A stretch of 64,000 bases of DNA from Minisyncoccota bacterium (lineage in GTDB: Bacteria; Patescibacteriota; Minisyncoccia; 2-02-FULL-40-12; GWA2-44-9). The stretch covers positions 1,912 to 65,911 of the forward strand of contig DASZRH010000030.1 of assembly GCA_035549275.1 (NCBI GenBank), written 5' to 3'. A program made the position numbers and the translations under genes. Of this stretch, positions 20,654-50,395 are shown in pieces; positions within the stretch are counted from its first letter, which is position 1; every line of letters begins with the position of its first letter. A model generated the notes under the pieces. It ran no database searches. It saw only the letters and a program-made list of their open reading frames with translations, and had not been told where the DNA came from.

Positions 20654-22024
20654 CTACTTATCAAAAGAGTTATACACACGTTCCTTGATAAGTACCAACT
20701 CTTGTTTTAAGGGTTCATCAACCGCCGATTCCGCTTTTATTTTTTCATACGCATGGATAACAGTCGAATGATCGCGTCCGCCGAGTTTTTGGCCAATCTC
20801 CGGGAAAGACAACTTGGTCTCATCGCGGAGTAAGAACATGGTGATTTGACGCGGACGTACCACTTCTTTTTTGCGGCTTCGCTTCAAAAGGTCGTTTAAA
20901 GAAATATTATAGAAATCAGCCACGGCCTTTAAGACTGATTGCGGCGATGTTTTTCGATAAGGCGTATTTAAGTAGGTATTTAAGATGTTTTTTACCTCTT
21001 TTACGTCCGGCAGTTTGTTGTAAATTTGAGCGAAGGCAATAACCCTGTTTAAAGCGCCTTCAAGCTCGCGGACATTTTTTTGAATATGAGTCGCGATATA
21101 TGACAGAACATCATCGGATAATTCAGTGTTTTTAATGGCGCTTTTCTGTTTCAGGATCGCAAGCCGGGTTTCATAGTCCGGAAGACCAACATCGGCGATC
21201 ATACCGCCGGCAAAGCGGGAGCGAAGCCGTTCTTCGATTGCTGGGATAGCTTGCGGCGGCCGGTCTGATGAGAATACGATCTGTTTATTCTTTCCATAGA
21301 GCTCATTAAATGTCGAAAATGTGATTTCTTGCATCTTTTCTTTGCCGGCGAAGAACTGCACATCGTCGATAATCAACAGATCAAGAGCGGCATAGCGGCT
21401 TTTAAGTTCTTCGACGGACTTATTCCGAATTGCCTCGACAATATGGGCGCTGAAGCGCTCGGCGGGAATATAGAGCACCTTTCGATCTTTTTGCTCTGCT
21501 ACCTTGTTTCCGACTGCCTGAAGGAGGTGGGTTTTTCCTAAACCGACGCCGCCATACAAAAAGAGCGGATTATACATTTTGCCGACGTTTTTGGTGACGG
21601 CAAGACAAGCGGCATAAGCCAGTTCATTATTGGAGCCGGTTACAAAGGATTCAAAGGAATACTTCTTATTAAGATTCGTGTTTTTATCAATATCGCTGTC
21701 GGCCGGAGCATCGGCCTTCTCTTCCAATTCTCGCTCCATGATGATCTTGGAGAAATCTTGCTTGATAAGTTCAAGCTTGGGCTTGCCGACGGTATATTTT
21801 ATTTCGCGAATTTCAGGCGAGAGCGCGCGAATGGACTGAAGAATCTTTTTGGTAAATTTGTCTTCCAGCCATACTTTCACGAAATTATTGGGAACATTGA
21901 CGACGGCAGACGTTTTGTCGCGGGCAATCAAAGACGTATTCTTCAGCCAAGTTGTAAACGTCGCTCGGGAGACGGTAAGTTCCATTTCGCCGAGGACCGC
22001 TTTCCAAAGTTGCTCGTTCGTCAT
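20654..22024 (-). CDS. dnaA: chromosomal replication initiator DnaA
   Basis: AAA+ Walker A GGVGLGKTHLLQAVGN; Walker B LLIIDDVQF; C-terminal DnaA-box-binding HTH (ITMFLLRDETKLSFPEIGQKLGGRDHSTVIHA); 456 aa. Confidence 0.95.
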   Translation of the reverse strand: MTNEQLWKAVLGEMELTVSRATFTTWLKNTSLIARDKTSAVVNVPNNFVKVWLEDKFTKKILQSIRALSPEIREIKYTVGKPKLELIKQDFSKIIMERELEEKADAPADSDIDKNTNLNKKYSFESFVTGSNNELAYAACLAVTKNVGKMYNPLFLYGGVGLGKTHLLQAVGNKVAEQKDRKVLYIPAERFSAHIVEAIRNKSVEELKSRYAALDLLIIDDVQFFAGKEKMQEITFSTFNELYGKNKQIVFSSDRPPQAIPAIEERLRSRFAGGMIADVGLPDYETRLAILKQKSAIKNTELSDDVLSYIATHIQKNVRELEGALNRVIAFAQIYNKLPDVKEVKNILNTYLNTPYRKTSPQSVLKAVADFYNISLNDLLKRSRKKEVVRPRQITMFLLRDETKLSFPEIGQKLGGRDHSTVIHAYEKIKAESAVDEPLKQELVLIKERVYNSFDK

Positions 22025-22213
22025 TGAGGAGAATAATTATTCTTCAGGTTATTATAGCGAACGCCTTCAGAATGCAATATTCACAGAAGTTGATAGCCTG
22101 TTCATAAGTCTGATCACACTCGACCCTGCGTTCGATACCAGTATGTATAGCAAGCGCAATAGAATAGTAAATATTGACCAAGCTCTTATTTCACGATACA
22201 ATTATATCAATCT

Positions 22214-22351
22214 ATGAAAATCACACTCTACCGACCCAAAAAGCAAAAAAGAAAGCGCAAGCACGGCTTTCTCTCTCGCATGCAAACCAAGTCGGGCCGT
22301 TCGGTCCTCGCCCGACGCCGCAAGAAGCACCGCCAGCGATTAACGGTTTAA
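22214..22351 (+). CDS. rpmH: 50S ribosomal protein L34
   Basis: 45-aa [48 protein letters not shown] matches the L34 consensus (K.KRTHGF..RM.T..GR.VL.RRR.KGR..LTV). It is below the 60-aa ORF-track cutoff. It sits immediately upstream of rnpA and divergent from dnaA. Confidence 0.85.
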
Positions 22352-22354
22352 GCC

Positions 22355-22687
22355 GTGGCTCTTTCCCGAATCCATCGCTTGGCGAGAAAACGTGATTTTG
22401 ACGACGTGTTTCAGAATGGTACTTTTGTCCGCGGGCCGTGGTTCTCAATTCGGACTTTCAAAAGAGCCGATTCGCCGGGCCGAGCCGGGTTTATGGTTCC
22501 AAGCCGGATTATTCCCCGGGCTGTGGATCGCACCCGAATCCGCCGGATTTTAAGCCAGGCCGTGCGAGCGCTGGGTCTGGCGCGATTGAAAGGATACGAT
22601 CTCGTAATATCAGTTTCCCGTTCCCTGCCAGGTGATTTCAAAAGAATTCAAAGCGATATCAGTACAGCCGTTGCTAAAACTCTATGA
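22355..22687 (+). CDS. rnpA: ribonuclease P protein component
   Basis: 110-aa basic protein with GTG start 4 nt after rpmH; rpmH-rnpA synteny; RnpA-like central motif. Confidence 0.85.
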   Translation: MALSRIHRLARKRDFDDVFQNGTFVRGPWFSIRTFKRADSPGRAGFMVPSRIIPRAVDRTRIRRILSQAVRALGLARLKGYDLVISVSRSLPGDFKRIQSDISTAVAKTL

Positions 22688-22902
22688 TTACTCTCTATCG
22701 CCTCATTAATACGTTTATTCGAAACAGTCAAACTCCGCTCTTGGCGACTACCACCTGCAAATATTATCCCTCCTGCTCGCAGTACGCCGAGCTGGCGATT
22801 AAAGAGCGCGGGATATTCGTCGGTTCCTTGAAATCCATCTGGCGGATTATCCGGTGCAATCCCTGGAGCCGCGGCGGCATTGATTTTCCCTCACCCCAAT
22901 GA
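22684..22902 (+). CDS. yidD: membrane protein insertion efficiency factor YidD
   Basis: 72 aa with conserved Cys motif CKYYPSCSQYA; overlaps rnpA and yidC by 4 nt each. Confidence 0.85.
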   Translation: MITLYRLINTFIRNSQTPLLATTTCKYYPSCSQYAELAIKERGIFVGSLKSIWRIIRCNPWSRGGIDFPSPQ

Positions 22903-23597
22903 TTACTGATTTTTTTCGAGAAGTACTGTATCGTCCTCTGTTCAATGTTCTCATTGGTATTACCAATGTCATTCCCGGCCATGACGTCGGATTGGCCATT
23001 ATCTTTCTGACAATCCTCGTTCGGCTTATATTTTTGCCGCTTTCCATCCGCTCCCAGCGTTCTCAACGGGCACTGAACCAACTCAATCCGAAAATCCAAG
23101 AGCTGCGGGAGAAACACAAAAACGACCAAGTTGCTCAAGGCCAAGCGATTATGCAGTTGTACAAGGATAACAACGTCAGCATGGTTGCCGGCTGTTTGCC
23201 GATTCTGATTCAATTCCCCATTCTCCTGGCCCTCTATCGCGTCTTTATTGCCGGTTTGAGCGCCAGCAGTCTGTCGCTGCTCTATCCTTTTATCCATAAC
23301 CCCGGAACCTTAAATACTGTGTTTCTAGGATTTTTAAGCATCGTCGGCAAGAGCCGTGTGCTCGCGGTGATAGCAGCGGCGCTGCAATTTATCCAGATAC
23401 GCCAAAGTACGCGGCTGCTGGGCGGGTCTGGGAATAACCAACAAATGGCGGCTATCAACAGTCAGATGATGTATGTGATGCCGGCAATGGTGTTAATCAT
23501 TGGCTGGAATTCTCCGGCCGGGCTCCTCTTGTATTGGGTTACAACGACGGTATGGGCCATGGGTGAGCAGTGGTATATCCGCCGGACCCTTTCATAG
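22899..23597 (+). CDS. yidC: membrane protein insertase YidC (short form)
   Basis: 232 aa with five TM helices; conserved GCLPILIQFPILLALY and NSPAGLLLYWVTT regions of the YidC/Oxa1 family. Confidence 0.85.
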   Translation: MITDFFREVLYRPLFNVLIGITNVIPGHDVGLAIIFLTILVRLIFLPLSIRSQRSQRALNQLNPKIQELREKHKNDQVAQGQAIMQLYKDNNVSMVAGCLPILIQFPILLALYRVFIAGLSASSLSLLYPFIHNPGTLNTVFLGFLSIVGKSRVLAVIAAALQFIQIRQSTRLLGGSGNNQQMAAINSQMMYVMPAMVLIIGWNSPAGLLLYWVTTTVWAMGEQWYIRRTLS

Positions 23598-23600
23598 CAT

Positions 23601-24086
23601 ATGGATCAAGACCATGTTACTCGTTTAATTAAAGAAGTCGTGGAGCGGACGATGAGCGTCCTAGGTGTTGAGCACCGAGCGGATGTTGTCTCGGAGAATC
23701 GTGATGGAAAAACAGTGCTCACTGTTTCAATTCAGGCACCGGAACACGGTCGTCTTTTGATTGGGAAAAACGGCCAGAATCTCCACGCACTGGAACAGGT
23801 CCTGAAAGCCGTAGCTGCCAAGGATGCGACTGGCGCGTCGCTCGTTTCGGTGGACGTCAATGATTACAAAAAATCACGCGCGGAGCGCGTGATTCAGATT
23901 GCCCGCGAAGTTGTCGCCAGAGTCCGAGCGACGCGCCGGGCCGAAGCGCTGATGCCCATGTCTTCATACGAACGCCGCATTGTACATACCGAGCTGGCGG
24001 CAATGTCCGATATTGCGACCGAAAGCGTGGGCCAGGAACCCCAGCGCCGGATTGTCATCAAGACCGTCGCCTCGTCCCTGAACTAG
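23601..24086 (+). CDS. jag: Jag/KhpB RNA-binding protein (KH + R3H domains)
   Basis: KH-like GxxG (IGKNGQNL) and C-terminal R3H region (SYERRIVHTELAAMSDI); follows yidC as in many bacteria. Confidence 0.8.
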   Translation: MDQDHVTRLIKEVVERTMSVLGVEHRADVVSENRDGKTVLTVSIQAPEHGRLLIGKNGQNLHALEQVLKAVAAKDATGASLVSVDVNDYKKSRAERVIQIAREVVARVRATRRAEALMPMSSYERRIVHTELAAMSDIATESVGQEPQRRIVIKTVASSLN

Positions 24087-24092: not shown

Positions 24093-25172
24093 TTACTCCC
24101 CGCTTACCTTGATAGCGTATAAGCTGTGGTCGGATTGGTTTACGATAATCAGAAAATCCTGGAGATGAGACAGAAATACTCGTTCGCCGGAAATAATCAC
24201 ATTTGAAGAAATGGTTTGTGAAGCGCCGGTTGCCAGATCAAGCCGGGTAACCGAGGTTTCTCCTTTGGTGTCCACCAGGCAAAACGCCGCACCGCCGTTG
24301 AGGGTCGGCGCGCATAGCGCGGCATCAACGGAGAGAGGAAGATTTATTTGGCTTTTGTCGGTGAGATTGTAGCGGGCCAAGACCGGATAGCCATCTTTTT
24401 CGACCGAGTAGATAAAACCGGACCCATCAGGAATCCAGACTACACCCAAGCTTGTCTGGCCTTCCAATATTTTTGTTAAGTCTCCGTTAGTGGCCAGAAG
24501 GTATAGATCGCTGGTGCCGTCGGCATTGGGTACCGTCAGGGCAAGCGTGTCCGGATTCGGCCAGGCGATCGAAAAGCGATCAAGCCGGGTCTTTAAAATC
24601 GTCCGAGCATATTGGTCCCCCGGTGCGCCGGTGGTAATAATCGTTTCGTCGTTTATCTTTCTGACGGCGGCGATAGAACTGCCGTCGGGCGAAAAGGCCG
24701 CATCAAGAACATTGGTCCCCATGCTGAATGCGCGGCCGGTGCCGTAGCTGTAATATTTAAACTCGGTTGCTTTTGCGGTCGTGAAAATCGTCATCACCTG
24801 CTGGCGGTCAGGCGACCAAATGACGCGGCTTAGCTGCGGCAGAATCGCCGTCGAGATATTTGTGTTTTGCCGCGTCACAATATCAGCTTTGGTGGCAATG
24901 CCGGTATCGGCTTGGTAATAGAGAACGCTTTCGCTGGCAATATCACTGACCGGAGAGATCGTTTCTTTTTCAGAGAGCTGGAACAGTCCCTGGGGCACAA
25001 TCGTCTGACCCGTCGAGCCGGCGAGGTTTTGGAACCGGTCCAAAATACTTCCCTTTTGGGCAGCGCCGGCGTCTGATTTTAATCCCGATTGAATAAGGAT
25101 ATAGCCGGCCAAAAAAGAAAGCAGCGAAGCGGTTAAAATACTGAAAGCCAGAATTTGTTTTGGAATCTTCAT
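24093..25172 (-). CDS. hypothetical membrane-anchored protein with beta-propeller-like repeats
   Basis: N-terminal TM; repeated WxPDG / SPDGS segments (VIWSPDRQ, AAFSPDGSSIAA, VVWIPDGSGFIY) resembling TolB/PD40-type blades; last gene of the minus-strand T4SS-like block. Confidence 0.4.
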   Translation of the reverse strand: MKIPKQILAFSILTASLLSFLAGYILIQSGLKSDAGAAQKGSILDRFQNLAGSTGQTIVPQGLFQLSEKETISPVSDIASESVLYYQADTGIATKADIVTRQNTNISTAILPQLSRVIWSPDRQQVMTIFTTAKATEFKYYSYGTGRAFSMGTNVLDAAFSPDGSSIAAVRKINDETIITTGAPGDQYARTILKTRLDRFSIAWPNPDTLALTVPNADGTSDLYLLATNGDLTKILEGQTSLGVVWIPDGSGFIYSVEKDGYPVLARYNLTDKSQINLPLSVDAALCAPTLNGGAAFCLVDTKGETSVTRLDLATGASQTISSNVIISGERVFLSHLQDFLIIVNQSDHSLYAIKVSGE

Positions 25173-25175
25173 AAA

Positions 25176-25703
25176 TTAAATTCTGCTGGCAATACCGGCG
25201 GTGTGAGCAATTTGTTCAGCTTTTGCCGCAATATGCTGAATGGTTTTGCTGCGCGACTTGATGAATGCGTACACTAACGCGATTAAGTCCAGTGGAAAGT
25301 CGCCGATAAACGGGACCGCGTCTATAACCAGCGATATATCCCAGAGAATTCGCGCTTCACGCATGGATTTTCGATATTTCCGGGTAAGAAAGAACAAAAT
25401 AACGCTGATTCCCACATCTGCCACCCAGCATATCACGGTTACAATCAAACCAACGGCCGTGGCCGCAGCGGCAGTGCCGACCCAGGCCAAGGCCAGCTGG
25501 ATAAGAATGAGGAAAAATGAAGCTATGAATACAAGCCAACCCATGCGTTTTATGGCGGGCTGGCTTTCGGCCGCGGCGGCATCCGCCGCAGCCTCCTGGG
25601 CCCGCAGCATCTCCAGTTGAGATTGCTGCCAGGTCTCCTGGTCATCAATCAATTGTGGGTCAGTGGATGCGTCAGCCATGGCTATTTTTGTAATCCGGCC
25701 CAT
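25176..25703 (-). CDS. hypothetical polytopic membrane protein (T4SS-cluster associated)
   Basis: 175 aa with three or four TM helices; overlaps the 3' end of the VirB4-like gene by 22 nt. Confidence 0.45.
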   Translation of the reverse strand: MGRITKIAMADASTDPQLIDDQETWQQSQLEMLRAQEAAADAAAAESQPAIKRMGWLVFIASFFLILIQLALAWVGTAAAATAVGLIVTVICWVADVGISVILFFLTRKYRKSMREARILWDISLVIDAVPFIGDFPLDLIALVYAFIKSRSKTIQHIAAKAEQIAHTAGIASRI

Positions 25704-27439
25704 TCTTCCTTGGCCTTCTCAATCTCAAGGATCTGGCGCGGATCCGACGTGATGATCTGATCTTCGGCGTAGGATGCAACGACACGGATACCGATATGGT
25801 TCTGACCCAAGAAGAAGAGGCCAAAGCCAACGCGAGCCTCCAGAAGATAAAATTTCTCTGAATCGGTTAGATTGAACGTCTGCTGGACCACGTCAATCGC
25901 GGCTGGTGACTGTTTCATCAGCATCTGAATCGAAGAGTTAGTCAAAATTGTCTTGCCTTGCGGACTGGCCAGGAAGTCTGGAATATCTTGAGAAATGGTC
26001 GTCAGACCGGCGTAATATTTACGGGCCCGTTTGGCGATATTGGAGAGGAAATTCGCTCCAATCTCATATTTCATGAGCCACCAGGCCTCATCCACGATCA
26101 AGATGCGTTTTTTGAGAGTGCGGCGAACGGTAACCCAGATAAAGTTCAAAATCAGATACATCGCTAATGGCCGGAGCTCTTCTTCCATGTCTCGGATGCT
26201 GAACACGACGAGCTGATTGTCGAGTGGGACGTTGGTTGGCTGGTTTAGGAAACCGGAAAACGTGCCTTGGGTGTATTTTTTCAGCCGCGTCGCCATTGAT
26301 TCGGCGCCCTGCAGCCCTTCGAGAATATTCTGAAGGTCGGAAAGAACCGGCGGCGAAGCGCGGGAAAAATCTGAATCTGGCGTAATGTCCTTGATAGCAT
26401 ACGTCTGGATTAGCGCTTCATCGAGGATCGCTTCTTCTTCCGGCGTCAGTTTCTCGAAGATAAGCTTTAAGAGGCCGGTTAAATCCAGAATATGCGACTT
26501 GAACACGTCAGCCGGCGATTCCCCTTCTTTGGGTACCGGCAAATCAAACGGATTGATATGCTGATCGGAATTGACTGAAATTTTGACCGTGGAGCCGCCG
26601 ACGGTATCGGAAAGATATTTGTACTCGTCTTCAGGATCAATGATCAGCACTTGGGTGCCGAAGATTAAGCTGCGGAGAATTTCCAATTTAACGGTGTAGC
26701 TCTTGCCGCCGCCGGATTTGCCGAACACGACGGCATTCGCGTTTTCCAAGTTAAAGCGGTCAAAGAGGACCAACGAGTTGTTGTGGGTATTGATGCCGTA
26801 CAAAATGCCGCTGTTGGAGGTCAAATCGAATGAAACAAACGGAAACAGCGAGGCCAGCGGTTCCGTGTTCAACGATGTGTGGACGGTCAGACGGTCGTCG
26901 TCGATCGGAAGCGTTGAATTAAACCCTTCCAGCATTCGGAATGTGGCCGGCTTGGCCATGACCAGCTGGTATTCCAGCAGGCCTTTGAGTTTGGCTTCGG
27001 TTTCATCCAAGTCCTTGATCGAGTTTTCGTAGATAGTGATATAGATGCCGAGCTCGAAGAATTTGTCGGTTCCCTGCTGGAGCTTGTCGCGCAGGGCTTC
27101 AATGTCCTGCATGGCGGTTTCCAGAATCGGATCCCGAACTTTGCCCTTAGCAGCTTCTTCCATCGCTTGGGCCTGGAGTCGAGCCAGCTGATCGCGGAGC
27201 TGCTTCAGGACCGTCACCGTGCTTTTTGGATGGACAAAGAATGAAATATCCAATACCCGATCCAGGTTAATGATCGGCGAGAACCAGCTGGTGTTTAGAT
27301 ACCGCGGATAGGTGGCCAAAAAAATGGTTCGGGCATACTTGGGCCCCAGCTGGAGATAGTTGCTGGAAACCGAAAGCGCCGCCGGAGCCAGCTGATCGCG
27401 GATATCAGGTGCAGATGGTTGGGTGGGAGTATTTGCCAT
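25682..27439 (-). CDS. VirB4/TrbE/CagE-family type IV secretion ATPase
   Basis: Walker A VVFGKSGGGKS; Walker B RILIVDEAWWLM (the DEAW signature of VirB4-like ATPases); 585 aa. Confidence 0.75.
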   Translation of the reverse strand: MANTPTQPSAPDIRDQLAPAALSVSSNYLQLGPKYARTIFLATYPRYLNTSWFSPIINLDRVLDISFFVHPKSTVTVLKQLRDQLARLQAQAMEEAAKGKVRDPILETAMQDIEALRDKLQQGTDKFFELGIYITIYENSIKDLDETEAKLKGLLEYQLVMAKPATFRMLEGFNSTLPIDDDRLTVHTSLNTEPLASLFPFVSFDLTSNSGILYGINTHNNSLVLFDRFNLENANAVVFGKSGGGKSYTVKLEILRSLIFGTQVLIIDPEDEYKYLSDTVGGSTVKISVNSDQHINPFDLPVPKEGESPADVFKSHILDLTGLLKLIFEKLTPEEEAILDEALIQTYAIKDITPDSDFSRASPPVLSDLQNILEGLQGAESMATRLKKYTQGTFSGFLNQPTNVPLDNQLVVFSIRDMEEELRPLAMYLILNFIWVTVRRTLKKRILIVDEAWWLMKYEIGANFLSNIAKRARKYYAGLTTISQDIPDFLASPQGKTILTNSSIQMLMKQSPAAIDVVQQTFNLTDSEKFYLLEARVGFGLFFLGQNHIGIRVVASYAEDQIITSDPRQILEIEKAKEEWAGLQK

Positions 27440-27446
27440 ATAAGAA

Positions 27447-28091
27447 TTAAACAGCGGGCTGCTCCGGCGGCGCTACGCGCCGTTCGCCGGGGTTGTACAG
27501 TCCATAGTACACGTCCATTAATTCGGCTTGTTCCAGCAACTTTACCTTCAAACCAAGACTGATCAAACCATCCATCACCAATTCGGTGCGCTGCATCAGC
27601 TGGACGCGGTATTTTTCCAACTCTTCGGGATTGATCCGCTTGATGACGCCGCCGGGATTAAAGATGCTCTGGAAACTTTTCAAAATACCGGACTTAGACG
27701 GTGTTTCGTAGATATAGAACGGGAGGACGACGTAAAATTTCTTGGACATGATATTGGAGAGTTCCAGCAATTCTTTGACGAACTTCGCATATTCGACGGC
27801 TTGGATTTTCAGCAGCTCATTCTGGGTGTTGTCGGCCGCTGTATCTAAGGTTTTGATGTATTCATCCATATTCAACTGCCGCGAATTGACGACGATCTGA
27901 AGCGGAAAATCAATCGAATTCAGAAAGTTCTGGAAATTGCCGAGAATGCCCATCTGCTCCCCTTCCGAGCGGAGCTCAAAGTTGATGGCCGAGACTTCAA
28001 TGACGGCCCGAAGCGATCCGTTGGTCAGCAAGACCACGTTCCCTTGGATATCTGCGATCTCAACCAGATTTTTGGTGGAAAGATTAGCCAT
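27447..28091 (-). CDS. hypothetical T4SS-associated protein (possibly VirB4 N-terminal-domain-like)
   Basis: 214 aa from MANLSTKNLVEIADIQGNVVLLTNGSLRAVIEV. Start trimmed from the track start (28178) to avoid a 95-nt overlap with the upstream small membrane gene. Co-oriented and tightly packed with the virB4-like gene. Confidence 0.45.
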   Translation of the reverse strand: MANLSTKNLVEIADIQGNVVLLTNGSLRAVIEVSAINFELRSEGEQMGILGNFQNFLNSIDFPLQIVVNSRQLNMDEYIKTLDTAADNTQNELLKIQAVEYAKFVKELLELSNIMSKKFYVVLPFYIYETPSKSGILKSFQSIFNPGGVIKRINPEELEKYRVQLMQRTELVMDGLISLGLKVKLLEQAELMDVYYGLYNPGERRVAPPEQPAV

Positions 28092-28404
28092 TGCGTTTGG
28101 TTTGGGTAAGGTAGTTGGGAGTCTGCTCTTCCGGCTGGAAAAGGTATTTCTTTTGGCCGAAGGTGAAGGCAATCGCATTGGCGACGTAGTTGATGAGCGG
28201 CATGTCGTCGATCTTCAAAAACGCGAACGCGAGCGATATGGCGGCGACGGGAATGGCGATCAAGATCGCCCAGATGCTGTGGCTGATGCTGAATATCAGA
28301 AACAGAACGGTCCCGCCGGCGGCAATCCACAAAAACTGTTTGAGCGTGAACGGCCCGACGATATTGATCTCCGTCTGGATGAATTGTGGAATCTGGAAAC
28401 GCAT
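28084..28404 (-). CDS. VirB3/PrgI-like small membrane protein
   Basis: 106 aa with two adjacent TM helices (LWIAAGGTVLFLIFSISHSIWAILIAIPVAAISLAFAF); located immediately upstream of the virB4-like genes as in T4SS operons. Confidence 0.45.
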   Translation of the reverse strand: MRFQIPQFIQTEINIVGPFTLKQFLWIAAGGTVLFLIFSISHSIWAILIAIPVAAISLAFAFLKIDDMPLINYVANAIAFTFGQKKYLFQPEEQTPNYLTQTKRNG

Positions 28405-30824
28405 TAGGATTGATTTTTGTCTCTTAAGTTTACCACGTTATTCGGATTTATGGTTGCGGACGGCGGTTTGGGTGGCTTAATCGGGGTCATCGGCTCAATC
28501 CGAGGGAAATATCGAGGTGCTACTCGCGTTGATGCTTGTGGCCCCTGCGGAGTTGAAGCACGGGGATTTGAATTTTGCTCTGTATTCTCTTCTTCATCTT
28601 CCTCCTCTTCCTCGATCGTGCTTTGAGTAATTTGAGAAGATCGTGGGACTACTGTGCCGGGCGGTTGGCCAGGAATCCCAAATCCGATCGGCTGTCTATA
28701 TGTCCCCGATCCTCGTCCAGAACGTGCCTGCTGGTTCGGTGTCGATTGTTGGCTGCCGACCGCATTGACGGATTGTCTTTGTTGATTAGCGTTTGCTTGG
28801 TTCGGCTGATTGGTTTGGGCGAAGTTATTTTTGGGTGCCACACTTTCTAGAATTAACAACTTATCACTGTTGCCCTGCTCATTGAGGATCTTTTCAAGAT
28901 TGTCTCTTAGGTTTTTGCGGGTTTTATACGAGACGTTTGAGTCAGTGATCTTGTGTTTAAGGGATGCTTGGAACTCAAGTGTTTTCCAAAGGTCATCTGG
29001 CATTGCAGCGATATTCTTGGCTTCTGTATCAAGCGATTTTCTGATTGCACCTAATTTTGTCATCGCAACAGTTTTGGATCCAGTCTTGTATATGGGTTGA
29101 CCAGCGGCATCGGTAAGTGGTTTTCCTGTAGCGTCTTTTTCTGGTTCAGGCTGTTCAAGTATGTTGTTATTTTTCTTAAAGTCATAGACGAGGTCAGGAC
29201 GCAACTTGCCGAAATCCTCCAAAAACTTCTTTGTTTCAGGGGACTGGACGCCGCCCAGGATACTGGCTGCCTTGTTTAAATCCTCCTCTTTCAAACCAGC
29301 CGCCATCTTGGCATCCCCCGCTACATATCGGAGCATCTCTCGGCGCGCGGGCGTGAGTGTCGGATAGTTCAAAGAGTCATTGAGCGCAATGGATTTAAGA
29401 TTTTTGATGCCGTCAAACTTAGCGTCCTTTGCCGTCTTCACCAGATCGTTAATGGCATAGGGATTTCCGCGGAGCTGCCGCAGTGTTTCTTCAAACATTG
29501 TGCCATCCATACCACCCTTTTCGAGTAAAAGTTTTCGGTACGCATACCCCTCTGAACTGGCCGCAGATTTTGAAGCAAGCGTTCGAAGCTGGTTAATGTC
29601 AATGCGGCCAGTATTATAATCATTTTCTGCTTTTGAATAAGCGACTTTGGCGTTTTCAGTAAACTGTCTTTGGGTCCTGAATGGCCATTGGCCAGCCACA
29701 GCAGCCCTCTGGCGCTCAAGCCCCTCTTGTCCCCCGTAGATCTTATTAAGGTATTTATTCTGAAATCCTTGTTTCTGGAATTGTTCCCTTCTTTTATTGT
29801 AAGCATACTGATAAGAATCTAAGGAACCGCCGCCCGGAAGTGGTATTCTTTTAACTAGATTAGTAGCCCAGCCCACGCCTTTTTTGAACGTATTGTCTCC
29901 GGTCCAGGCGGTTGTTAGTTGCATGGCCCAGACTGCGCCCATTACCAGCATGACAGCAGCGAAGATGTAGAAGAAAAGTAAGCTGAACGAAGCGCTGTTT
30001 GTGAGACCAGCAATAAGTCCTTTATCTAGAGCACTTTGAGAATCACTGGCGATCTTGAAACCGATTTGTTTTGTAATCTCGCCTCTTTGTGAAAGGAAAA
30101 AGAGGGTCAGGTACAAGAAAAAGAGATAAACCGGCAAGAACAGATTCCACCCAAAGAACATTCCCCACCAACGATAGAATTGTTTCTGTGTTCCCGGCAA
30201 AATATTCGCCATCCAGGCCAATGGTGAAATAATGAGGAGTCCCCAAATGACAAAGATGCGAATAACCGCAAAAAAGGTAGCCACCAAAATGCTGAACAAA
30301 AACATCGCGCTGATCACGAGGCGCATAATGGCAGAGATTGCGCCAGCCGAAAAGACGTCAATGTCATAGATACTGCCGCTATCCCCCGGGGTCAATCCCA
30401 CCAAACTTGTCGGACTCAAATATTGCCCGAGTTTATCAGCGGGATTGCCGATTGCTGCCAGAAATACATTCGTAAGCACTTGGCACGCATCGATTACGAG
30501 CCCCCCCAATACCAGACTGAAATTAATGAGAACGGCGACGATAAGAAAACGGACAATCATTTTTTGAAATGAATATTTGGAAGAGTCAAAAATCGTTGCA
30601 AACGCCATCCAGATCAGCAACACGACAAACAGCATATTTGAAAAATTCCGGAGAATCGTCCAGGTGCCGGTAATCACGGGCATATCATTAAACGCCCGAA
30701 GATAAAGAGCGAAATTAAATACTCGAAGAACGACCGAAATGAGCTGAATAATAATACTATTCAGCGAAGTGATTAAGAATGTTATGACTGTCCCTAGGCT
30801 CGTAAGTGAACTAAAAATATCCAT
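28404..30824 (-). CDS. VirB6/TrbL-like polytopic membrane protein with long hydrophilic C-terminal extension
   Basis: 806 aa. The N-terminal ~330 aa has at least six TM helices. The C-terminal ~470 aa is hydrophilic with an E/D run (EEEEEDEEEN) and Q/N/P-rich low-complexity sequence. Confidence 0.55.
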   Translation of the reverse strand: MDIFSSLTSLGTVITFLITSLNSIIIQLISVVLRVFNFALYLRAFNDMPVITGTWTILRNFSNMLFVVLLIWMAFATIFDSSKYSFQKMIVRFLIVAVLINFSLVLGGLVIDACQVLTNVFLAAIGNPADKLGQYLSPTSLVGLTPGDSGSIYDIDVFSAGAISAIMRLVISAMFLFSILVATFFAVIRIFVIWGLLIISPLAWMANILPGTQKQFYRWWGMFFGWNLFLPVYLFFLYLTLFFLSQRGEITKQIGFKIASDSQSALDKGLIAGLTNSASFSLLFFYIFAAVMLVMGAVWAMQLTTAWTGDNTFKKGVGWATNLVKRIPLPGGGSLDSYQYAYNKRREQFQKQGFQNKYLNKIYGGQEGLERQRAAVAGQWPFRTQRQFTENAKVAYSKAENDYNTGRIDINQLRTLASKSAASSEGYAYRKLLLEKGGMDGTMFEETLRQLRGNPYAINDLVKTAKDAKFDGIKNLKSIALNDSLNYPTLTPARREMLRYVAGDAKMAAGLKEEDLNKAASILGGVQSPETKKFLEDFGKLRPDLVYDFKKNNNILEQPEPEKDATGKPLTDAAGQPIYKTGSKTVAMTKLGAIRKSLDTEAKNIAAMPDDLWKTLEFQASLKHKITDSNVSYKTRKNLRDNLEKILNEQGNSDKLLILESVAPKNNFAQTNQPNQANANQQRQSVNAVGSQQSTPNQQARSGRGSGTYRQPIGFGIPGQPPGTVVPRSSQITQSTIEEEEEDEEENTEQNSNPRASTPQGPQASTRVAPRYFPRIEPMTPIKPPKPPSATINPNNVVNLRDKNQS

Positions 30825-30827
30825 AGA

Positions 30828-32372
30828 TTATGGGGTGGGTGTTGGGGTGCTGCAAGTTGCGTTTACGGCAGTGATGATCTCGGTTAGGGGGGTTAAGACA
30901 TTGTTGCGGGCGGTATTCAAGTCATCGCGGTCTTGGGTAGTCATAATATGATCTGGATTCCCGAATACTCCGGTAATATCGTGATACGTAGCAAGCAGAA
31001 GATCAATTTGATGGAGGACGCTGTTGATCTGATCAGAATACTGGGTGCCAGTGGAATCATCTTTCTGGCCGCTTAAGAGGTCAGACATGTCCGAGAATGG
31101 ATTAGGCCCGGTCAGGCCCGTATCCCCCATAGTGGCGGCGCTGCTGGAGAAATTGTAGCTGGCCAGTTGCTGATACGTTCTGGTGAGGACGTTCAGAAAA
31201 CCTGCCTGTGGCGCAGTGGCTGAACATACCGGCGCTGCCGGGTTATTTGGGTTAGTTCCCGTATCGGTTCCCGTATCGGGATAATTTAGGGTGCTGGTGC
31301 CCGCATCGCCGTCGCCGGCTAGGATATTGTCGCCGTCATTGGGATTCGATTGGTCAAGCAAGTGATTCAGAAGCTTCACAATTCCAGTGGAAATGAGCGT
31401 CCCTAATTCTTGAGTGTTGGCGAGCCAGCTAAATTCGGCATTGATGGTTGCGGCCGCATTATCAGCGATATAGCTGCCCGTGGTTTTGATGGATTTATAT
31501 ACGATGCAACTGCCGGCAAAGCTGACTTGGCAACTGTCGGCCTTGCCGTTGCCGCTGATACCCGTGTATCCTTTTCCTGCCACAGCCTGATTCACATCGG
31601 CCGACTGCGCTGCATTGCGCTGTTTTGTGGCTTCGTTGTAGGACAAAAGCAAAGCACCGTAGTAGTTGTTTTGCGGCTGGGCAAGGCGAGCAATGGCGTC
31701 CCAGCCGCCGGCGCCGGCAAAGTCCTGATCGAATTTAGCGGGATCAAATCCGGCTGGCATAGTACAGCCGATATCCGAAGCGAACGAAGTCAAGCTGTCG
31801 GTTCGGGTTTTTTGCGAACCGAGTGAGATTTTTTGGTTCGGACTTAAGCCAAATACTTTTTTCAGATCGTCGCCGAAATACGGACAGAGTTTCGAAGTGC
31901 TCAGCATTGCCCGAAAAACATTCTCGCCTCGATATTGGGCTTGATTTTGGAAATTATTCCAATCAGTAACAAACGATGCTCCCCCGTCGCGTCCGCGGGT
32001 CTGGATAATGGTGCTAATGTTGCCGCTTAAATTATCGAATATTTCTCGAGCAATACAGCGGGCAATAATGTCGGTGCGGGTAGTCTTATCTGTAAAAGCG
32101 TCTGCAAATTTTTCGGAGTTACTATCATAGACCGGAACAGTCAATCCGATCCCGCCTATGCCCGTGAATAAGTTTGTTAATCTTTTCTCCAGGCCTCCAA
32201 TTTTATTTGTGAGCCAAGGTGCAAGAGATGCCCCAACATAGCAACCCGTGAATTTGGTTGCGGTACTGACTACCACGTTTGCCGCTTGAGCTCGCGGAGT
32301 CTCAAAAGGAGAAAACATCGTATAGGCGATGGTTGCGATTGAAAGGCAGATTGAAATGAAGCGCCTGGTCAT
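30828..32372 (-). CDS. secreted hypothetical protein (T4SS cluster)
   Basis: 514 aa; signal peptide (IATIAYTMFSPFETPRAQA); G/T/N-rich with a C-terminal TPTPTP linker; no recognisable catalytic motif. Confidence 0.45.
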   Translation of the reverse strand: MTRRFISICLSIATIAYTMFSPFETPRAQAANVVVSTATKFTGCYVGASLAPWLTNKIGGLEKRLTNLFTGIGGIGLTVPVYDSNSEKFADAFTDKTTRTDIIARCIAREIFDNLSGNISTIIQTRGRDGGASFVTDWNNFQNQAQYRGENVFRAMLSTSKLCPYFGDDLKKVFGLSPNQKISLGSQKTRTDSLTSFASDIGCTMPAGFDPAKFDQDFAGAGGWDAIARLAQPQNNYYGALLLSYNEATKQRNAAQSADVNQAVAGKGYTGISGNGKADSCQVSFAGSCIVYKSIKTTGSYIADNAAATINAEFSWLANTQELGTLISTGIVKLLNHLLDQSNPNDGDNILAGDGDAGTSTLNYPDTGTDTGTNPNNPAAPVCSATAPQAGFLNVLTRTYQQLASYNFSSSAATMGDTGLTGPNPFSDMSDLLSGQKDDSTGTQYSDQINSVLHQIDLLLATYHDITGVFGNPDHIMTTQDRDDLNTARNNVLTPLTEIITAVNATCSTPTPTP

Positions 32373-33280
32373 TGATTGATGTTGAGAAATGAAGTATCGA
32401 TCTTCTGGTCGGTTAGTGCGGTGCTATAGTCGGTGATGAATGTGAAGTATTTTTCGTACATGTCCCCGACAGCATCAAGCGCGAATGATGCTTTGATTGG
32501 ATCGGCGTCACCCATGGAAAGAGCCTGGCAAATATCGCGCATCTGTTGGACGATGCTTAGGAATTCCGAATCCGTTGGAATCAGCTTTTTGGGCACCGAT
32601 AGATCAAGGCCTTCATTTAAGATCGAAGTATATTGATTGGCCTGATCGGCATAAGATTTTTTAATGCTGTCTGTGAAACCGTCGCTTCCGATCGCATCAA
32701 GAGTTTGAGATAGGACCGAAGATGTGGAAGAAAATTGGGAACCAAACTCATTAACAAGTTTAGTGAAAGATTGGAGATATGATTTTTGGTCGTCGGCACC
32801 GTCGTTTGCGGTGTGAAGCGAAGCAGGATCGACCGTTTTGCTGAATAGGTATGTTGCAGAATCAGCGACTGAAGATGTAATATCCGACCACGCCTGGTTG
32901 TAATTTTCGCTGTCAGTCTTCAGATCCCCGGCGGCGAGACCGTCTACGGTAAGACTAGCCAGTTGATCGGTTAAGTTGCCATTCTCGATAAGATCGTTGG
33001 GGCCGGGTACGCGCGGATCATGGCCAGAAGCGACTTCTTCCCCATCTTTAAAACCGTCGCTATCGGTGTCGGGATCATAGGGGTCAGTGTTCCAAAGCGC
33101 TTCTTGAATATTGGAAAGACCATCATGGTCAGGATCATCGTCGGATGCGCCAATTGAAGCGGTTTGCGAAAGTGTTGGACCCTTGAGAGCCTCGACATGT
33201 AAAAATTTAGCAAATTGCCAAACCAAAATCATAGCGGCTCCTGCCATGATCGCAATGAAAAAAGTAACCTTCTTCGGCAT
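32369..33280 (-). CDS. membrane-anchored protein with thrombospondin type-3-like calcium-binding repeats
   Basis: N-terminal TM, then DDDPDHDGLSNIQEALWNTDPYDPDTDSDGFKDGEE, i.e. tandem DxDxDG calcium-binding loops; 303 aa. Confidence 0.5.
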   Translation of the reverse strand: MPKKVTFFIAIMAGAAMILVWQFAKFLHVEALKGPTLSQTASIGASDDDPDHDGLSNIQEALWNTDPYDPDTDSDGFKDGEEVASGHDPRVPGPNDLIENGNLTDQLASLTVDGLAAGDLKTDSENYNQAWSDITSSVADSATYLFSKTVDPASLHTANDGADDQKSYLQSFTKLVNEFGSQFSSTSSVLSQTLDAIGSDGFTDSIKKSYADQANQYTSILNEGLDLSVPKKLIPTDSEFLSIVQQMRDICQALSMGDADPIKASFALDAVGDMYEKYFTFITDYSTALTDQKIDTSFLNINQ

Positions 33281-33383
33281 TATTAATTTGGGATATGCCA
33301 GGTGGTAAAAACCAGCTTCTTCCCTAGCTTTATTATACTACAGAGTCTATCTGCCGATACCGCCGGGTGTTGATAGTCAGAGC

Positions 33384-33731
33384 TTAGGATGTGCCGACCT
33401 TTAAGATGAGGGGGCCGCCACCCACTGGAGTGCAGCCAAAGCCGCCTGGCTGCAAGCAAACATCGTACCCGCTCGCGATGCCTAAGACCCAATTTCCGCC
33501 CCCAAAGATGTTGTAGTATCTATAAAGTGTTGAGGAGCCCGGGCGGTACATGAAAACGCCCGGCCGTGGCGGCCCTACCGTGATCATCACGTTAAAACTG
33601 CATGAGCAAGGAATGCTGCTGATGAGTCTGCCGCCGAATGGTGTACCAAACGTTGCTGCATCCACGAGACCAGGTAGGAAAAAAGACAGAAAAGACGCCA
33701 CCAAGAGAAATACAAGAGAAACTCTCCGCAT
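33384..33731 (-). CDS. small secreted cysteine-containing protein (first gene of T4SS-like block)
   Basis: 115 aa; signal peptide cleaved after VDA; mature ~90 aa is G/P-rich with five Cys. Confidence 0.4.
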   Translation of the reverse strand: MRRVSLVFLLVASFLSFFLPGLVDAATFGTPFGGRLISSIPCSCSFNVMITVGPPRPGVFMYRPGSSTLYRYYNIFGGGNWVLGIASGYDVCLQPGGFGCTPVGGGPLILKVGTS

Positions 33732-33765: not shown

Positions 33766-34536
33766 TTAAGGTGTTGATAAGTTTTGAGCTAATTGCTGCC
33801 ATTGTGCGACGGAAAGATTTTCGGCACGGATAGCCGACAAAAGACCGGTTTTTTCAAACGCTGCGAGAACGGCTTCCCGGCTATAACGTCCCAGGAGGTT
33901 GTTGAGCAGCTGCTTGCGCCTGGAGGAAAAGCCGAGCCGGGCAATATCCAGGAAATTAATACCCAATTCCGGCCGTGGCCGGAGGCGGATCACGGCGGAA
34001 TCCACCGCCGGTATCGGCCGGAAGCTTCCGGCCGATACCGGCATGACGATTTCAGGCTCCGTATAGTACTGAATGGCCGCGGCCAGAAGATTCATGTGCG
34101 GCGGCTGGGCCAAAATCCGCTGGGCAACCTCTTTTTGAACCATTAGCACAAGCAGCTGTGGCCGCGGCCACTTTTCAAGCGCGAGTTTAAGAAATCGCCC
34201 GGTGATATAGTACGGTAGATTGGCGACGATTTTATAGCTGTCTGATACAAGGTTGAATTCTGTAGGATCGAACTCAAGCGCATCCCCTTCTCTGACCTGA
34301 ACCGACGAATCCAAAAATTCTTTTCGAAGCTCTTCAATCAGACGATGGTCTTTCTCGATGGCGATGACGGTGCCCGCGTGCTGGACCAGGAGTCGGGTTA
34401 ATAGTCCTGTGCCGGGGCCGATCTCCAGTATCGTATCGGTTGCCGACAGTTCGGCGGCCTCGACAATGCGCGCGGCGACACCGGCATTGATGAGAAAATT
34501 TTGGCCCAGCGATTTTTTTGCCGATACATTAGTCAT
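33766..34536 (-). CDS. rsmA: 16S rRNA (adenine1518/1519-N6)-dimethyltransferase RsmA/KsgA
   Basis: SLGQNFLIN motif; SAM-binding LEIGPGTGLLT; start at MTNVSAKK (34536) immediately after the uvrD stop. Confidence 0.9.
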   Translation of the reverse strand: MTNVSAKKSLGQNFLINAGVAARIVEAAELSATDTILEIGPGTGLLTRLLVQHAGTVIAIEKDHRLIEELRKEFLDSSVQVREGDALEFDPTEFNLVSDSYKIVANLPYYITGRFLKLALEKWPRPQLLVLMVQKEVAQRILAQPPHMNLLAAAIQYYTEPEIVMPVSAGSFRPIPAVDSAVIRLRPRPELGINFLDIARLGFSSRRKQLLNNLLGRYSREAVLAAFEKTGLLSAIRAENLSVAQWQQLAQNLSTP

Positions 34537-36502
34537 ATGACAGAACTTCTTCATAGTCATCGCTCGGGTCCAGCAGCTGATAGTCAAGCAAATCTTGCGG
34601 CATTTCGGACAGAAAACGTGACGGCAGATTGACTTCGGTGCTACCGAAGATGTTGCGGTACTTGGCGTGGGTCAGAACGAGACGTTCTTTAGCCCGAGTA
34701 ATGCCAACATAGCAGAGGCGGCGCTCTTCTTCCATTTCGTGAGGATTGTAGATCGTCCGGCTGTGCGGGAACAGCCCTTCTTCCATGCCGACGATAAAGA
34801 CCATCGGAAATTCGAGTCCCTTCGACGAGTGCATGGTCATGAGGTTTACCCGCGCGACATTGTCTTTGCCGCGATCGGCGTCCTGCAGGAGCGCGATTTC
34901 TTCCAGAAATCGCGCTCGGCCTTCATCCGGATCGAGATTATCATAGCCCCGCGCTACGGTCATCAATTCGCGAATGTTCTCCATCCGCTCCTCAACATTC
35001 TCGTAATTGCCGCTTTTGGCCAAACTTAAGGTGCGCAAGTAGTCCTCATAGCGGATTGATTCAACGATATATTCGATGACTTTTGTGACCGGCCGTTCGG
35101 CTGCAACTGCTCGGAGGTCGGCTAAAAGCTCGGCGAATTTTTTCAAAGCTGCTCCCTTTTTGTTGTCTGTTGCCGCCAATTCTGCCAGGCCTTCGGTGAG
35201 GTCTTTTGTGCCGGCGGCGATAATTTTGTTGTATGTGGCTTCGCCGATGCCGCGAGCCGGCGTGTTGTAGATGCGTTCGAACGCCAAAATATCGGTCGGA
35301 TTATGGATAAATTTCAGATAACTTAGAATGTCTTTGATTTCTTTGCGATCGTAGAATTTTAGGCCGCCGACAATCTGGTATGGCAGGTGCTTCACGATGA
35401 GCGCCTCTTCGATGGCTCGGGACTGGGCGTGTGTGCGGTAGAGAATCGTGAAGTCATTCAATTTGTATCCCTGGCGGAGATATTTTACGATCTGCCCGAC
35501 GACGAAATTAGCTTCGGCCCGCTCGTTGAGCGTTTCTTTGACTACGATTCGCTCCCCCGCTCCGTTCTCGGTCCAGAGCGTCTTGGGAATTTGGTTTTTG
35601 TTGTTGGAGATAATATGCTGGGCCGCAGCGAGAATCGTCTGGGTCGAGCGGTAGTTTTGTTCCAGCAGAATAACTTGGGCGTCGGCGTAATCTTTTTGGA
35701 AATTCAGAATGTTTCGAATATCAGCTTCGCGGAATGCATAGATGGACTGGGCATCGTCGCCGATCACGAAGAGGTTTCGGTGCTTTTGGGCCAGCAGCTG
35801 AACGAACTGGTACTGGTCGTGGCTGGTGTCTTGGTATTCATCAACGAGAATATATTTCCAAAACTCGTGGTACTTGGCGAGAATGTTCGGATGATCTTTG
35901 AAAATTTTGACCGTCAAGACGATCAGGTCGTCAAAATCGAGCGAGTTCATATTTTTGAGCTGAGTTTGATATTGTTGGTAGAGCTTGGCGACCAGCTTCT
36001 CGATGTATTCATGAGGCCGATAGCTGTCGGGCCAGATGAGATCGGTCTTGAGTTTCGAAATTTTGTTGAGCATAGTCCGCGGGTTGTAGCGCTTGGGATC
36101 GATTTCCAGTTCACCCATGATGCGCTTCATGAGTGCAAGCTGATCATCACTGCCGAGGATCGAAAACTGGTTGCTGTAGCCCAGAACGCCGATTTCACGG
36201 CGCAGAATCCGAAGGCCCAATGAATGAAAGGTGCTGATTGCCGGCAATTCTTGTGATTTCTTTTTGGCTGTGCCCAGGAGCGTGCCAATGCGTTCTTTCA
36301 TTTCGTTGGCGGCCTTGTTGGTAAAAGTGATGGCGAGAATGCTGGCCGGCGGGATGCCGGAAGCGATCAGATATGCGACTCGATGTGTGAGGCAGCGTGT
36401 TTTGCCGGAACCGGGTCCGGAGATAACCAAAACCGGGCCGTCGAGCGTTTTGACGGCTTCAATTTGCTTATCATTCAACCCTCTCAAGATCGCGTCCTTC
36501 AT
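34529..36502 (-). CDS. UvrD/PcrA-family ATP-dependent DNA helicase
   Basis: SF1 motifs: Walker A SGPGSGKTRCLTHR; motif II LVDEYQDTS; motif VI-like VGITRAKERL; 657 aa. Confidence 0.9.
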   Translation of the reverse strand: MKDAILRGLNDKQIEAVKTLDGPVLVISGPGSGKTRCLTHRVAYLIASGIPPASILAITFTNKAANEMKERIGTLLGTAKKKSQELPAISTFHSLGLRILRREIGVLGYSNQFSILGSDDQLALMKRIMGELEIDPKRYNPRTMLNKISKLKTDLIWPDSYRPHEYIEKLVAKLYQQYQTQLKNMNSLDFDDLIVLTVKIFKDHPNILAKYHEFWKYILVDEYQDTSHDQYQFVQLLAQKHRNLFVIGDDAQSIYAFREADIRNILNFQKDYADAQVILLEQNYRSTQTILAAAQHIISNNKNQIPKTLWTENGAGERIVVKETLNERAEANFVVGQIVKYLRQGYKLNDFTILYRTHAQSRAIEEALIVKHLPYQIVGGLKFYDRKEIKDILSYLKFIHNPTDILAFERIYNTPARGIGEATYNKIIAAGTKDLTEGLAELAATDNKKGAALKKFAELLADLRAVAAERPVTKVIEYIVESIRYEDYLRTLSLAKSGNYENVEERMENIRELMTVARGYDNLDPDEGRARFLEEIALLQDADRGKDNVARVNLMTMHSSKGLEFPMVFIVGMEEGLFPHSRTIYNPHEMEEERRLCYVGITRAKERLVLTHAKYRNIFGSTEVNLPSRFLSEMPQDLLDYQLLDPSDDYEEVLSYD

Positions 36503-47936: not shown

Positions 47937-47937
47937 G

Positions 47938-49715: not shown

Positions 49716-49747
49716 GCAAAGCGTGGCGGGGAATTAAAGATGCAATG

Positions 49748-50263: not shown

Positions 50264-50395
50264 TGTAGGAAAGCCCTGGTAAAATGTTCTCCGATTGCGT
50301 AGCGAAGAAATTCCAGCCCAGAAGCATCTTAGTTACTTTACCTCCATTATAATTCCCCTGCTTGGAAGCACAAGCGACAGATATCAACAGGCATG

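Follow-up and report, generated by a model that had tools for sequence, protein, structure and literature searches.

The gene block and its layout

The stretch of 64,000 nucleotides analysed here (positions 1,912 to 65,911 of contig DASZRH010000030.1, assembly GCA_035549275.1; hereafter the window) belongs to a Yanofskybacteria-like member of the class Paceibacteria and harbours, between positions 24093 and 33731, a compact block of genes with features of a type IV secretion system (T4SS). A first reading of the letters alone, here called the original prediction, had placed nine co-oriented minus-strand genes in this interval, and all nine open reading frames (ORFs) were found there. They are numbered p1 to p9 in the direction of transcription. 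For comparison, homologous loci were collected from one genome per GTDB species, yielding 80 loci with a VirB4 at 52-99% identity. The nine ORFs are real genes and not chance ORFs; for all but p1, dozens of other genomes have a homologue in the corresponding place.

From p2 to p9, neighbouring genes either overlap or are separated by gaps, none exceeding 8 nucleotides (nt). The overlaps measure 4 nt (p2/p3), 1 nt (p4/p5) and 8 nt (p5/p6, with the ATG at 28091 as the start of p6), and the gaps 3 nt (p3/p4), 7 nt (p6/p7) and 3 nt (p8/p9). The only wide gap of the block, 103 nt, lies between p1 and p2. The tight packing described at first is thus operon-like for p2 to p9 but does not extend to p1. 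Scans for sigma-70 promoters and intrinsic terminators between 23.5 and 35 kb gave results at or below chance, so that the operon boundaries are drawn from spacing only. N-terminal hydrophobic segments, either signals or anchors, are present in p1, p2, p3 and p9, and hydrophobic transmembrane (TM) segments in p5 (two), p8 (two or three) and p4 (about six or seven).

A VirB4-type motor encoded by two genes

The ATPase of the block is p7 (25682-27439, 585 amino acids (aa)). Its best NCBIfam model was NF045971 (conju_CD1110 VirB4-like) with 359.8 bits against a curated cutoff of 325, followed at lower ranks by the VirB4_plasma, TraC-F-type, VirB4_CagE and TrbE models. A search of the PDB sequences returned only VirB4 proteins, 4ag5 (1.4e-42) and TrwK of R388 (1e-6). 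The Walker A motif GKSGGGKS and the Walker B motif DEAW, both named at first reading, are present and intact, and the proposed assignment of this protein to the VirB4 family is borne out by the scores. That assignment was to be abandoned if FtsK, HerA or TraG models scored better. VirB4 models scored best, no FtsK model was among the Pfam and NCBIfam matches of p7, and the only HerA-type signal was the generic P-loop model DUF87 (39.8 bits, Pfam). The Pfam match "P-loop_TraG" refers to the Bacteroides TraG, itself a VirB4 homologue. The closest type is the monoderm CD1110/PrgJ type of the mating-pair formation class FATA (MPF-FATA), and the PrgJ protein of pCF10 is annotated with the same model.

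The alignment of p7 covers only positions 185-733 of the 752 positions of NF045971, and p7 accordingly corresponds to the last two thirds of a complete VirB4 and is without the N-terminal domain. The preceding gene, p6 (27447-28091, 214 aa), supplies this domain. The p6 protein matched positions 103-233 of the VirB4_plasma model NF045975 (E 3e-12) as well as NF041427 of the TrsD/TraD family (TrsD; E 4e-6), and all 35 tested members of its family matched both the N-terminal region of VirB4_plasma and TrsD. The scores of p6 do not reach the cutoffs that NCBIfam sets for full-length proteins, which is usual when a match is remote or partial. By these matches p6 is a TrsD/VirB4 N-terminal-domain protein, and VirB4 is thus split into p6 and p7. 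TrsD and TrsE of pGO1 are split likewise. The original prediction had listed p6 only as a 214-aa protein, correct in length and start but missing its identity. The ORF could be extended to 28178 (243 aa), and the ATG at 28091 is preferred because the homologues are 203-216 aa long. A profile search of PDB sequences with the p6 family found nothing relevant, and a comparison with PrgJ of pCF10 by hhalign was insignificant, the single-sequence template probably being too weak.

Membrane partners of the motor

Immediately before p6, and directly upstream of it in 71 of the 80 loci, lies p5 (28084-28404, 106 aa). With its two hydrophobic segments and 42.3 bits to the PrgI family PF12666 (gathering score 27), p5 agrees with the VirB3-like two-TM protein that had been proposed.

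The largest protein of the block, p4 (28404-30824, 806 aa), consists of an N-terminal TM domain (about residues 1-320), an alpha-solenoid of ARM-like appearance (about 330-660) and a low-complexity tail rich in Q, N, P and E. Its AlphaFold model is confident (mean pLDDT, the predicted local distance difference test, 87.9), and Foldseek matched the model to several TrwI/VirB6 chains of the R388 stalk with probabilities up to 0.99. Among 66 members of the p4 family, five matched the TrbL/VirB6 family PF04610, one of them over the gathering score. Because of the TrbL matches in homologues, the confident model and the fold similarity to TrwI/VirB6, p4 is assigned as an extended VirB6-like polytopic membrane protein, so that a VirB3-like and a VirB6-like partner are both encoded with virB4. 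Profile searches of PDB sequences with the p4 family, and with its TrbL-positive homologue P0099, found nothing relevant. Read tentatively by the positive-inside rule, the sequence of p4 would put its C-terminal domain in the cytoplasm.

The gene following virB4, p8 (25176-25703, 175 aa), probably starts at Met9 (25679, 167 aa), as the NCBI annotation and the family alignment agree on this position. The protein displays an acidic N-terminus, a TM hairpin, a basic loop and a third hydrophobic segment with conserved prolines, consistent with the polytopic membrane protein first described. By iterated hidden Markov model (HMM) searches the family was found in 69 of the 80 loci, nearly always immediately after virB4, and p8 is a conserved, previously unnamed partner encoded directly after this gene. 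No Pfam or PDB match was obtained, the NCBIfam and Pfam scans giving only noise, and hhalign comparisons of the family with PrgF and PrgG of pCF10 were insignificant, again with single-sequence templates that were probably too weak. A role of p8 as a VirB2-type pilin was considered and rejected: there is no match to PF18895 or PF04956, a signal peptide is missing, and in many homologues a basic stretch of 80 residues is inserted into the loop.

Envelope proteins at both ends of the block

The core genes p4 to p8 are flanked by genes for envelope proteins. On the upstream side, p2 (32369-33280, 303 aa) is membrane-anchored; its calcium-binding TSP3 repeats precede a helical domain that evolves fast. 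The score to PF18884 was 24.7 bits, just under the gathering score of 25. The D-x-D-x-D-G columns are invariant across 34 homologues, and the profile matched the calcium-binding region of Bap (7c7r, 8.6e-6), in line with the TSP3-repeat calcium-binding protein that had been recognised.

The protein encoded by p3 (30828-32372, 514 aa) is secreted or anchored, and had been listed at first reading as a secreted protein. It comprises a conserved helical core containing cysteines (about residues 100-320), Pro/Thr-rich linkers and a variable C-terminal module. No match was found in Pfam or NCBIfam, nor anything relevant among PDB sequences with the family profile. The family is large: at E<=1e-3 it numbers 2,954 representative clusters, 216-919 aa long, and the long members that were tested gave no Pfam domain. 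One metagenomic protein of 898 aa, P0111, is a natural fusion of p2 and p3 in which TSP3 repeats and the helical domain are joined to a p3-like part; this fusion points to joint action of p2 and p3.

At the downstream end, p9 (24093-25172, 359 aa) closes the block and encodes a membrane-anchored, TolB-like beta-propeller. Direct matches to TIGR02800 and PD40 were weak, and the family profile matched TolB structures (7mx5, 1e-19), which confirms the TM plus beta-propeller-like architecture suggested at first. The gene is adjacent in 42 of 45 close loci and was found in only 9 of 34 distant loci, where it lies 3-6 kb further away.

The first gene, p1 (33384-33731, 115 aa), encodes the small secreted Cys-rich protein of the original prediction, with a signal peptide and 4 Cys and no match in Pfam or NCBIfam. 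Iterated HMM searches found homologues in only 7 of the 80 loci. We regard p1 as a variable accessory gene whose membership in the secretion system is doubtful. It was also considered as a pilin and rejected, the mature part being Gly-rich and non-hydrophobic. In L005, L007, L013, L018 and L022 a four-TM protein of about 480-510 aa replaces p1 between ksgA and p2, which makes the first slot of the cluster a variable one. The claim that the accessory secreted proteins have no recognisable homology applies to p1 and p3, which like p8 match no Pfam, NCBIfam or PDB sequence family, but not to p2 with its matches to PF18884 and 7c7r.

Conservation of the locus in related genomes

All 80 loci originate from metagenome-assembled genomes (MAGs) of the candidate phyla radiation, mostly labelled Yanofskybacteria or Paceibacterota, and represent the same locus. 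L001, L003, L008, L045, L047 and others carry the labels "uncultured Candidatus Saccharibacteria" or "Bdellovibrionales". These labels of third-party annotation MAGs look unreliable, because the loci share the Yanofskybacteria/Paceibacterota locus and its flanks.

The genes p4-p5-p6-p7 were colinear and co-oriented in every one of the 64 loci having all four, and p2-p3-p4-p5-p6-p7-p9 were colinear in all 31 loci in which the seven are present. The TrsD-like p6 was present in 78 of 80 loci, and p3 was detectable by tblastn in only 3 of the 34 distant loci. Conservation of the operon in related genomes had been named as a check, and a cluster lacking both synteny in relatives and any VirB6/TrbL HMM match as an argument against the T4SS reading; synteny was found, as were TrbL matches among the homologues of p4. 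The flanks are conserved too. In 47 of 80 loci a dnaA gene is no more than 10 kb away, with jag-yidC-rnpA-dnaA-dnaN as the usual neighbours, and ksgA (49/80) and uvrD (36/80) are located upstream of the block on the same strand, except in one case.

In the 45 close loci, the median identities were 78% for VirB4, 70% for DnaA, 57% for UvrD, 54% for DnaN and 54% for TrsD, followed by 49% for PrgI, 37% for p3, 33% for p4, 30% for p2 and 27% for p9. The most conserved protein of the neighbourhood is thus p7, exceeding DnaA, DnaN and UvrD, in a ranking that carries some ascertainment bias since the loci were selected through VirB4. The nearest genome, L001, has about 84% DNA identity in housekeeping genes, and its VirB4 and PrgI are 99% and 96% identical. 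Comparison of window positions 28404-33280 with L001:3451-8031 displayed pronounced differences between domains of the same protein. In p4 the TM domain was 52-94% identical and the C-terminal domain 0-40%, in p2 the TSP3 part was 64-84% identical and the helical domain 0-36%, and in p3 the core was 90-98% identical and the linkers about 30%. The hypervariability of the p4 C-terminal domain would fit an exposed location better than the cytoplasm. The cluster is vertically inherited and under very strong purifying selection.

The conservation data also bear on where the machine ends. Possibly only p4 to p8 form the secretion machine, while p1, p2, p3 and p9 are unrelated envelope or adhesion genes that share its neighbourhood and transcription unit. 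None of these four proteins matches a known T4SS subunit, p1 is rare, p3 was seldom seen in the distant loci, and p9 is adjacent in close relatives only. On the other hand, the start-stop overlap of p2 and p3 and the 3-nt gaps at p3/p4 and p8/p9 indicate translational coupling, the seven-gene order was never broken where all seven genes occur, and p2 and p3 have fused in nature. Monoderm T4SSs, moreover, always need wall-spanning and surface components, and the block encodes no others. A machine confined to p4 to p8 is therefore considered unlikely.

Components absent from the window

The nine proteins and 30 other ORFs of the window were scanned for further T4SS components, the scan for relaxases, coupling proteins and integrases taking ORFs of at least 339 aa. 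In this set neither a relaxase nor a type IV coupling protein (T4CP) of the VirD4/TcpA kind was found in the nine proteins or the other ORFs scanned, and no integrase among the window ORFs, so that both hallmarks of a conjugative T4SS are missing within the window. VirB11, VirB8-like proteins and VirB1-type hydrolases were not found in the nine proteins or the 30 other ORFs, and VirB7, VirB9 and VirB10 had no match there; by Pfam and NCBIfam, the nine proteins contain no outer-membrane core complex. A VirB2-like pilin (PF18895/PF04956), which is encoded near virB4 in roughly half of assemblies and is not strictly defining, was not detected in p1, p8 or ten further small ORFs of the window for membrane or secreted proteins. 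The earlier statement that relaxase, VirD4, VirB11 and an obvious pilin are missing holds for the window proteins scanned.

Since neither a relaxase nor a coupling protein was found with the block in the window and its setting beside dnaA is one of housekeeping genes, it is most likely not a conjugation apparatus; the original prediction had likewise seen a minimal or divergent T4SS and not a conjugative element. Conjugation is unlikely, too, because the system is chromosomal, by the window layout and conserved flanks, shows vertical inheritance and very strong purifying selection, and is without DNA-processing genes. The block might still be part of an integrated conjugative element, or what is left of a decaying one, with its relaxase and coupling protein outside the window. 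The nearest characterised relatives of p5 to p7 are indeed conjugation proteins of Firmicutes plasmids and integrative conjugative elements, and VirD4-like genes are often far from virB4 in Patescibacteria (PMC12102498). However, the block occupies the same position between ksgA/uvrD and jag-yidC-rnpA-dnaA in dozens of species, its GC content is close to that on either side, the scan of window ORFs gave neither an integrase nor a relaxase and repeat boundaries were not seen, all ORFs are intact with purifying selection stronger on VirB4 than on DnaA, and relaxases occur in only 103 of 3,035 Patescibacteria genomes. Such an origin is very improbable.

A T4SS without relaxase and coupling protein could also serve DNA uptake, as the competence-type systems Helicobacter ComB and archaeal Ced do. 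It would then import nucleic acid from the host or the environment as food for an organism unable to make nucleotides; import systems lack these two components likewise. The original prediction had listed DNA uptake among the proposed roles of minimal VirB4/VirB6 systems, and a preprint ties VirB4 conservation to feeding on host RNA (bioRxiv 10.64898/2026.06.21.733656). The p7 protein did match CedB and CedD in NCBIfam, but weakly (CedB: E 1e-7, 31 bits against a cutoff of 700), its best matches being conjugative monoderm VirB4 proteins, and the nine proteins gave neither a ComB-type VirB7, VirB8, VirB9 or VirB10 nor a homologue of CedA. In Southlakia epibionticum (S. epibionticum), competence relies on ComEC together with type IV pili; the comEC gene is dispensable whereas the T4SS is essential (PMC12857230). 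The full type IV pilus cluster present in the window could serve uptake here. An import function for the block is accordingly judged improbable, less so than a conjugative remnant.

Relation to known systems

The system to which the block is most similar has been described before. Wang et al. 2023 (PMC10633639) reported an essential Gram-positive-like T4SS in S. epibionticum, without coupling protein or relaxase, in which the core order is VirB6-PrgI-(TrsD)-VirB4 and the cluster SEML1_0006-0019 is essential for epibiotic growth. A structure-based table in that study lists SEML1_0013 and SEML1_0011 as VirB6/T4SS fold plus ARM repeat, and these VirB6-like proteins with C-terminal ARM-repeat domains have the same extended VirB6 architecture as p4. 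Quinonero-Coronel et al. 2025 (PMC12102498) found that the VirB4 proteins of Patescibacteria form one monophyletic clade within the MPF-FATA conjugation machinery of monoderms, with TrsD as the most frequent companion, PrgI/VirB3, a divergent VirB6 and rare relaxases; the location of the Paceibacteria T4SS next to dnaA, dnaN, rnpA and ksgA was reported there as well. Patescibacterial T4SSs are also covered by a 2025 FEMS review (PMC12857230). With the T4SSs of this clade the block shares the order VirB6-PrgI-TrsD-VirB4, the chromosomal location and the lack of a nearby relaxase or T4CP. Compared with the Southlakia prototype, the block was found to have neither genes for a VirB1-like lysozyme or peptidase nor a PF18895/PF04956 array, and has instead p2 with its TSP3 repeats, p3, p8 and the TolB-like p9. 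The words TSP3 and TolB are not in the main text of PMC12102498.

The MPF-FATA systems of pCF10, pGO1 and CTn2 (CD1110) likewise have a VirB4 of the CD1110 family, PrgI and a TrsD-type protein. In pCF10 (PrgH-PrgI-PrgJ) the order VirB6-like, VirB3-like, VirB4 is the same as in the block, and both are monoderm and without VirB7, VirB9 and VirB10. In contrast to these systems, the block has no VirD4-like T4CP, relaxase, PrgK-type hydrolase, PrgL/VirB8-like protein or LPXTG adhesin, and it is chromosomal and vertically inherited, not carried on a mobile element. Extended VirB6 proteins are also known from the Rickettsiales rvh system, and DotA from Legionella Dot/Icm. These, unlike the block, are diderm systems with outer-membrane core complexes; sequence identity is 9-12%, and the extra domain of p4 is an alpha-solenoid plus a low-complexity tail. 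Helicobacter ComB, Sulfolobales Ced, Bordetella Ptl and Brucella VirB resemble the block in having no coupling protein or relaxase and demonstrate non-conjugative roles of VirB4-based machines, but their specific subunits were undetected in the block.

Interpretation and proposed architecture

On this evidence the block is, with good confidence, a chromosomal, non-conjugative Patescibacteria T4SS that most likely serves epibiont-host interaction. The host-interaction role mentioned in the original prediction for minimal VirB4 systems of episymbionts is in the literature (PMC10633639, PMC12102498). A conduit for host interaction is favoured over ComEC-dependent competence because the S. epibionticum cluster is essential and comEC is not. 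Yanofskybacteria are parasites of Methanothrix with highly expressed secretion genes (PMC10936435), and tubular structures have been observed at a parasite-host interface (bioRxiv 10.64898/2026.06.21.733656).

Several points weigh against this interpretation. Its functional part is transferred by analogy from Saccharimonadia, a different class, whose cluster includes peptidoglycan hydrolases and a VirB2-like pilin array that were not found in the block. As judged from sequence, p1, p2, p3, p8 and p9 have no homology to known T4SS subunits, and their putative membership is argued only from position, coupling and co-conservation. The VirB6/TrbL-like character first proposed for p4 stands on structural similarity and the TrbL matches of its homologues, but p4 itself has no direct Pfam match at E<=0.1, PF04610 included, and none in NCBIfam. 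The Foldseek E-values of p4 are weak (0.15-0.9), and hhalign of its family against PrgH of pCF10 was insignificant, with a single-sequence template that was probably too weak. Finally, a T4CP, relaxase or pilins could sit elsewhere in the genome, the window being 64 kb.

The architecture may be pictured as follows, drawing on the R388 structure and the monoderm pCF10 and pIP501 systems. The order of the core, p4-p5-p6-p7-p8, is fixed, and it is flanked by the coupled and syntenic envelope proteins p2, p3 and p9. Hexamers of VirB4 would be anchored at the cytoplasmic membrane by p5, p4 and p8, which would form the translocon, p8 with its acidic cytoplasmic N-terminus being a possible extra subunit of the platform. 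The wall-spanning, surface-exposed part may be formed or decorated by p2 and p3, fused in some genomes, together with the TolB-like p9. The hypervariable modules of p2 and p3 would then contact the host cell, as might the C-terminal domain of p4, depending on its topology. Proteins or other macromolecules would in this way be transferred between the ultrasmall cell and its host.

More tentatively, Paceibacteria may have swapped the hydrolase, pilin and adhesin parts of the system for subunits of their own, namely p8, p2-p3 and p9, a replacement that we consider possible without regarding it as probable. Under such a replacement, p3 would be a surface tip or adhesin, its Cys-rich helical core docked on the machine and its swappable C-terminal module setting host specificity, and the ARM-like C-terminal domain of p4 might recruit a substrate or partner in place of the missing coupling protein. 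If this is true, new T4SS subunit families are at hand, p3 alone representing about 2,950 sequence clusters.

No T4SS before the patescibacterial one had been shown to be essential to its own bacterium's survival, here that of S. epibionticum, and this system is a leading candidate for the means by which ultrasmall epibionts exploit their hosts. Every element of the first interpretation of the block was already published in 2023-2025 (PMC10633639, PMC12102498), and the novelty of the system itself is low. The locus adds nothing to the concept but is a clean, well-conserved Paceibacteria version from a lineage that includes parasites of methanogenic archaea. The increment is modest and consists of Paceibacteria-specific, unannotated partner families and domain-level hypervariability: p8 following virB4, the large p3 family that is sometimes fused to p2, the TolB-like p9, and an ATPase that is nearly frozen while p2, p3 and the VirB6 C-terminal domain diverge fast. 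Four co-conserved, unannotated envelope proteins are thereby flagged as concrete targets for structural and host-range studies.

Origin proximity and other features of the window

The block is origin-proximal, as is evident from housekeeping flanks with dnaN and dnaA, a minimum of the cumulative GC skew near 20 kb of the window and a cluster of DnaA-box-like sites at 20144-20678. Its placement next to the replication origin was hence a reasonable one, dnaA/dnaN being 2 kb away, and the count of DnaA boxes over the whole window was not above chance. One flank consists of dnaN and, at 20654-24086, dnaA (20654-22024, minus strand) and the divergent rnpA-yidD-yidC-jag (22355-24086, plus strand), assigned from the ORFs and conserved neighbours. 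The other, upstream flank (33766-36502, minus strand) contains the housekeeping genes ksgA (33766-34587) and that of a UvrD/PcrA helicase (34529-36502). The strongest terminator-like hairpin of the region, an 11-bp stem followed by a T run at 23871-23895 on the minus strand, is found some 200 nt past the stop codon of p9, within the convergent jag; terminator-like sites overall were not above chance.

Over the 33 kb from 24093 to 57102, which include the T4SS block, nearly every gene is on the minus strand and the GC skew is positive, with the inferred origin at about 20-22 kb. Transcription would consequently run head-on to replication. This orientation is unusual, and the assignment of the skew or the origin may need a check.

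A complete type IV pilus cluster is located on the minus strand at 46685-57102. It encodes PilM (55879-57102), PilO (54735-55259), PilB (52676-54436), PilT (51597-52667), PilC (50396-51607), the prepilin peptidase PilD (48927-49715) and N-methyl pilins (47418-50263). A second PilB-like ATPase is encoded on the plus strand at 12036-13697. In Saccharibacteria, type IV pili work alongside the T4SS in epibiosis.

Elsewhere in the window, an ORF of 822 aa at 58419-60887 on the plus strand had no Pfam match at E<=0.001. A tRNA-Ile with the anticodon TAT (UAU) was called by ARAGORN at 3423-3496; most bacteria have a tRNA-Ile with a CAU anticodon that is modified to lysidine.

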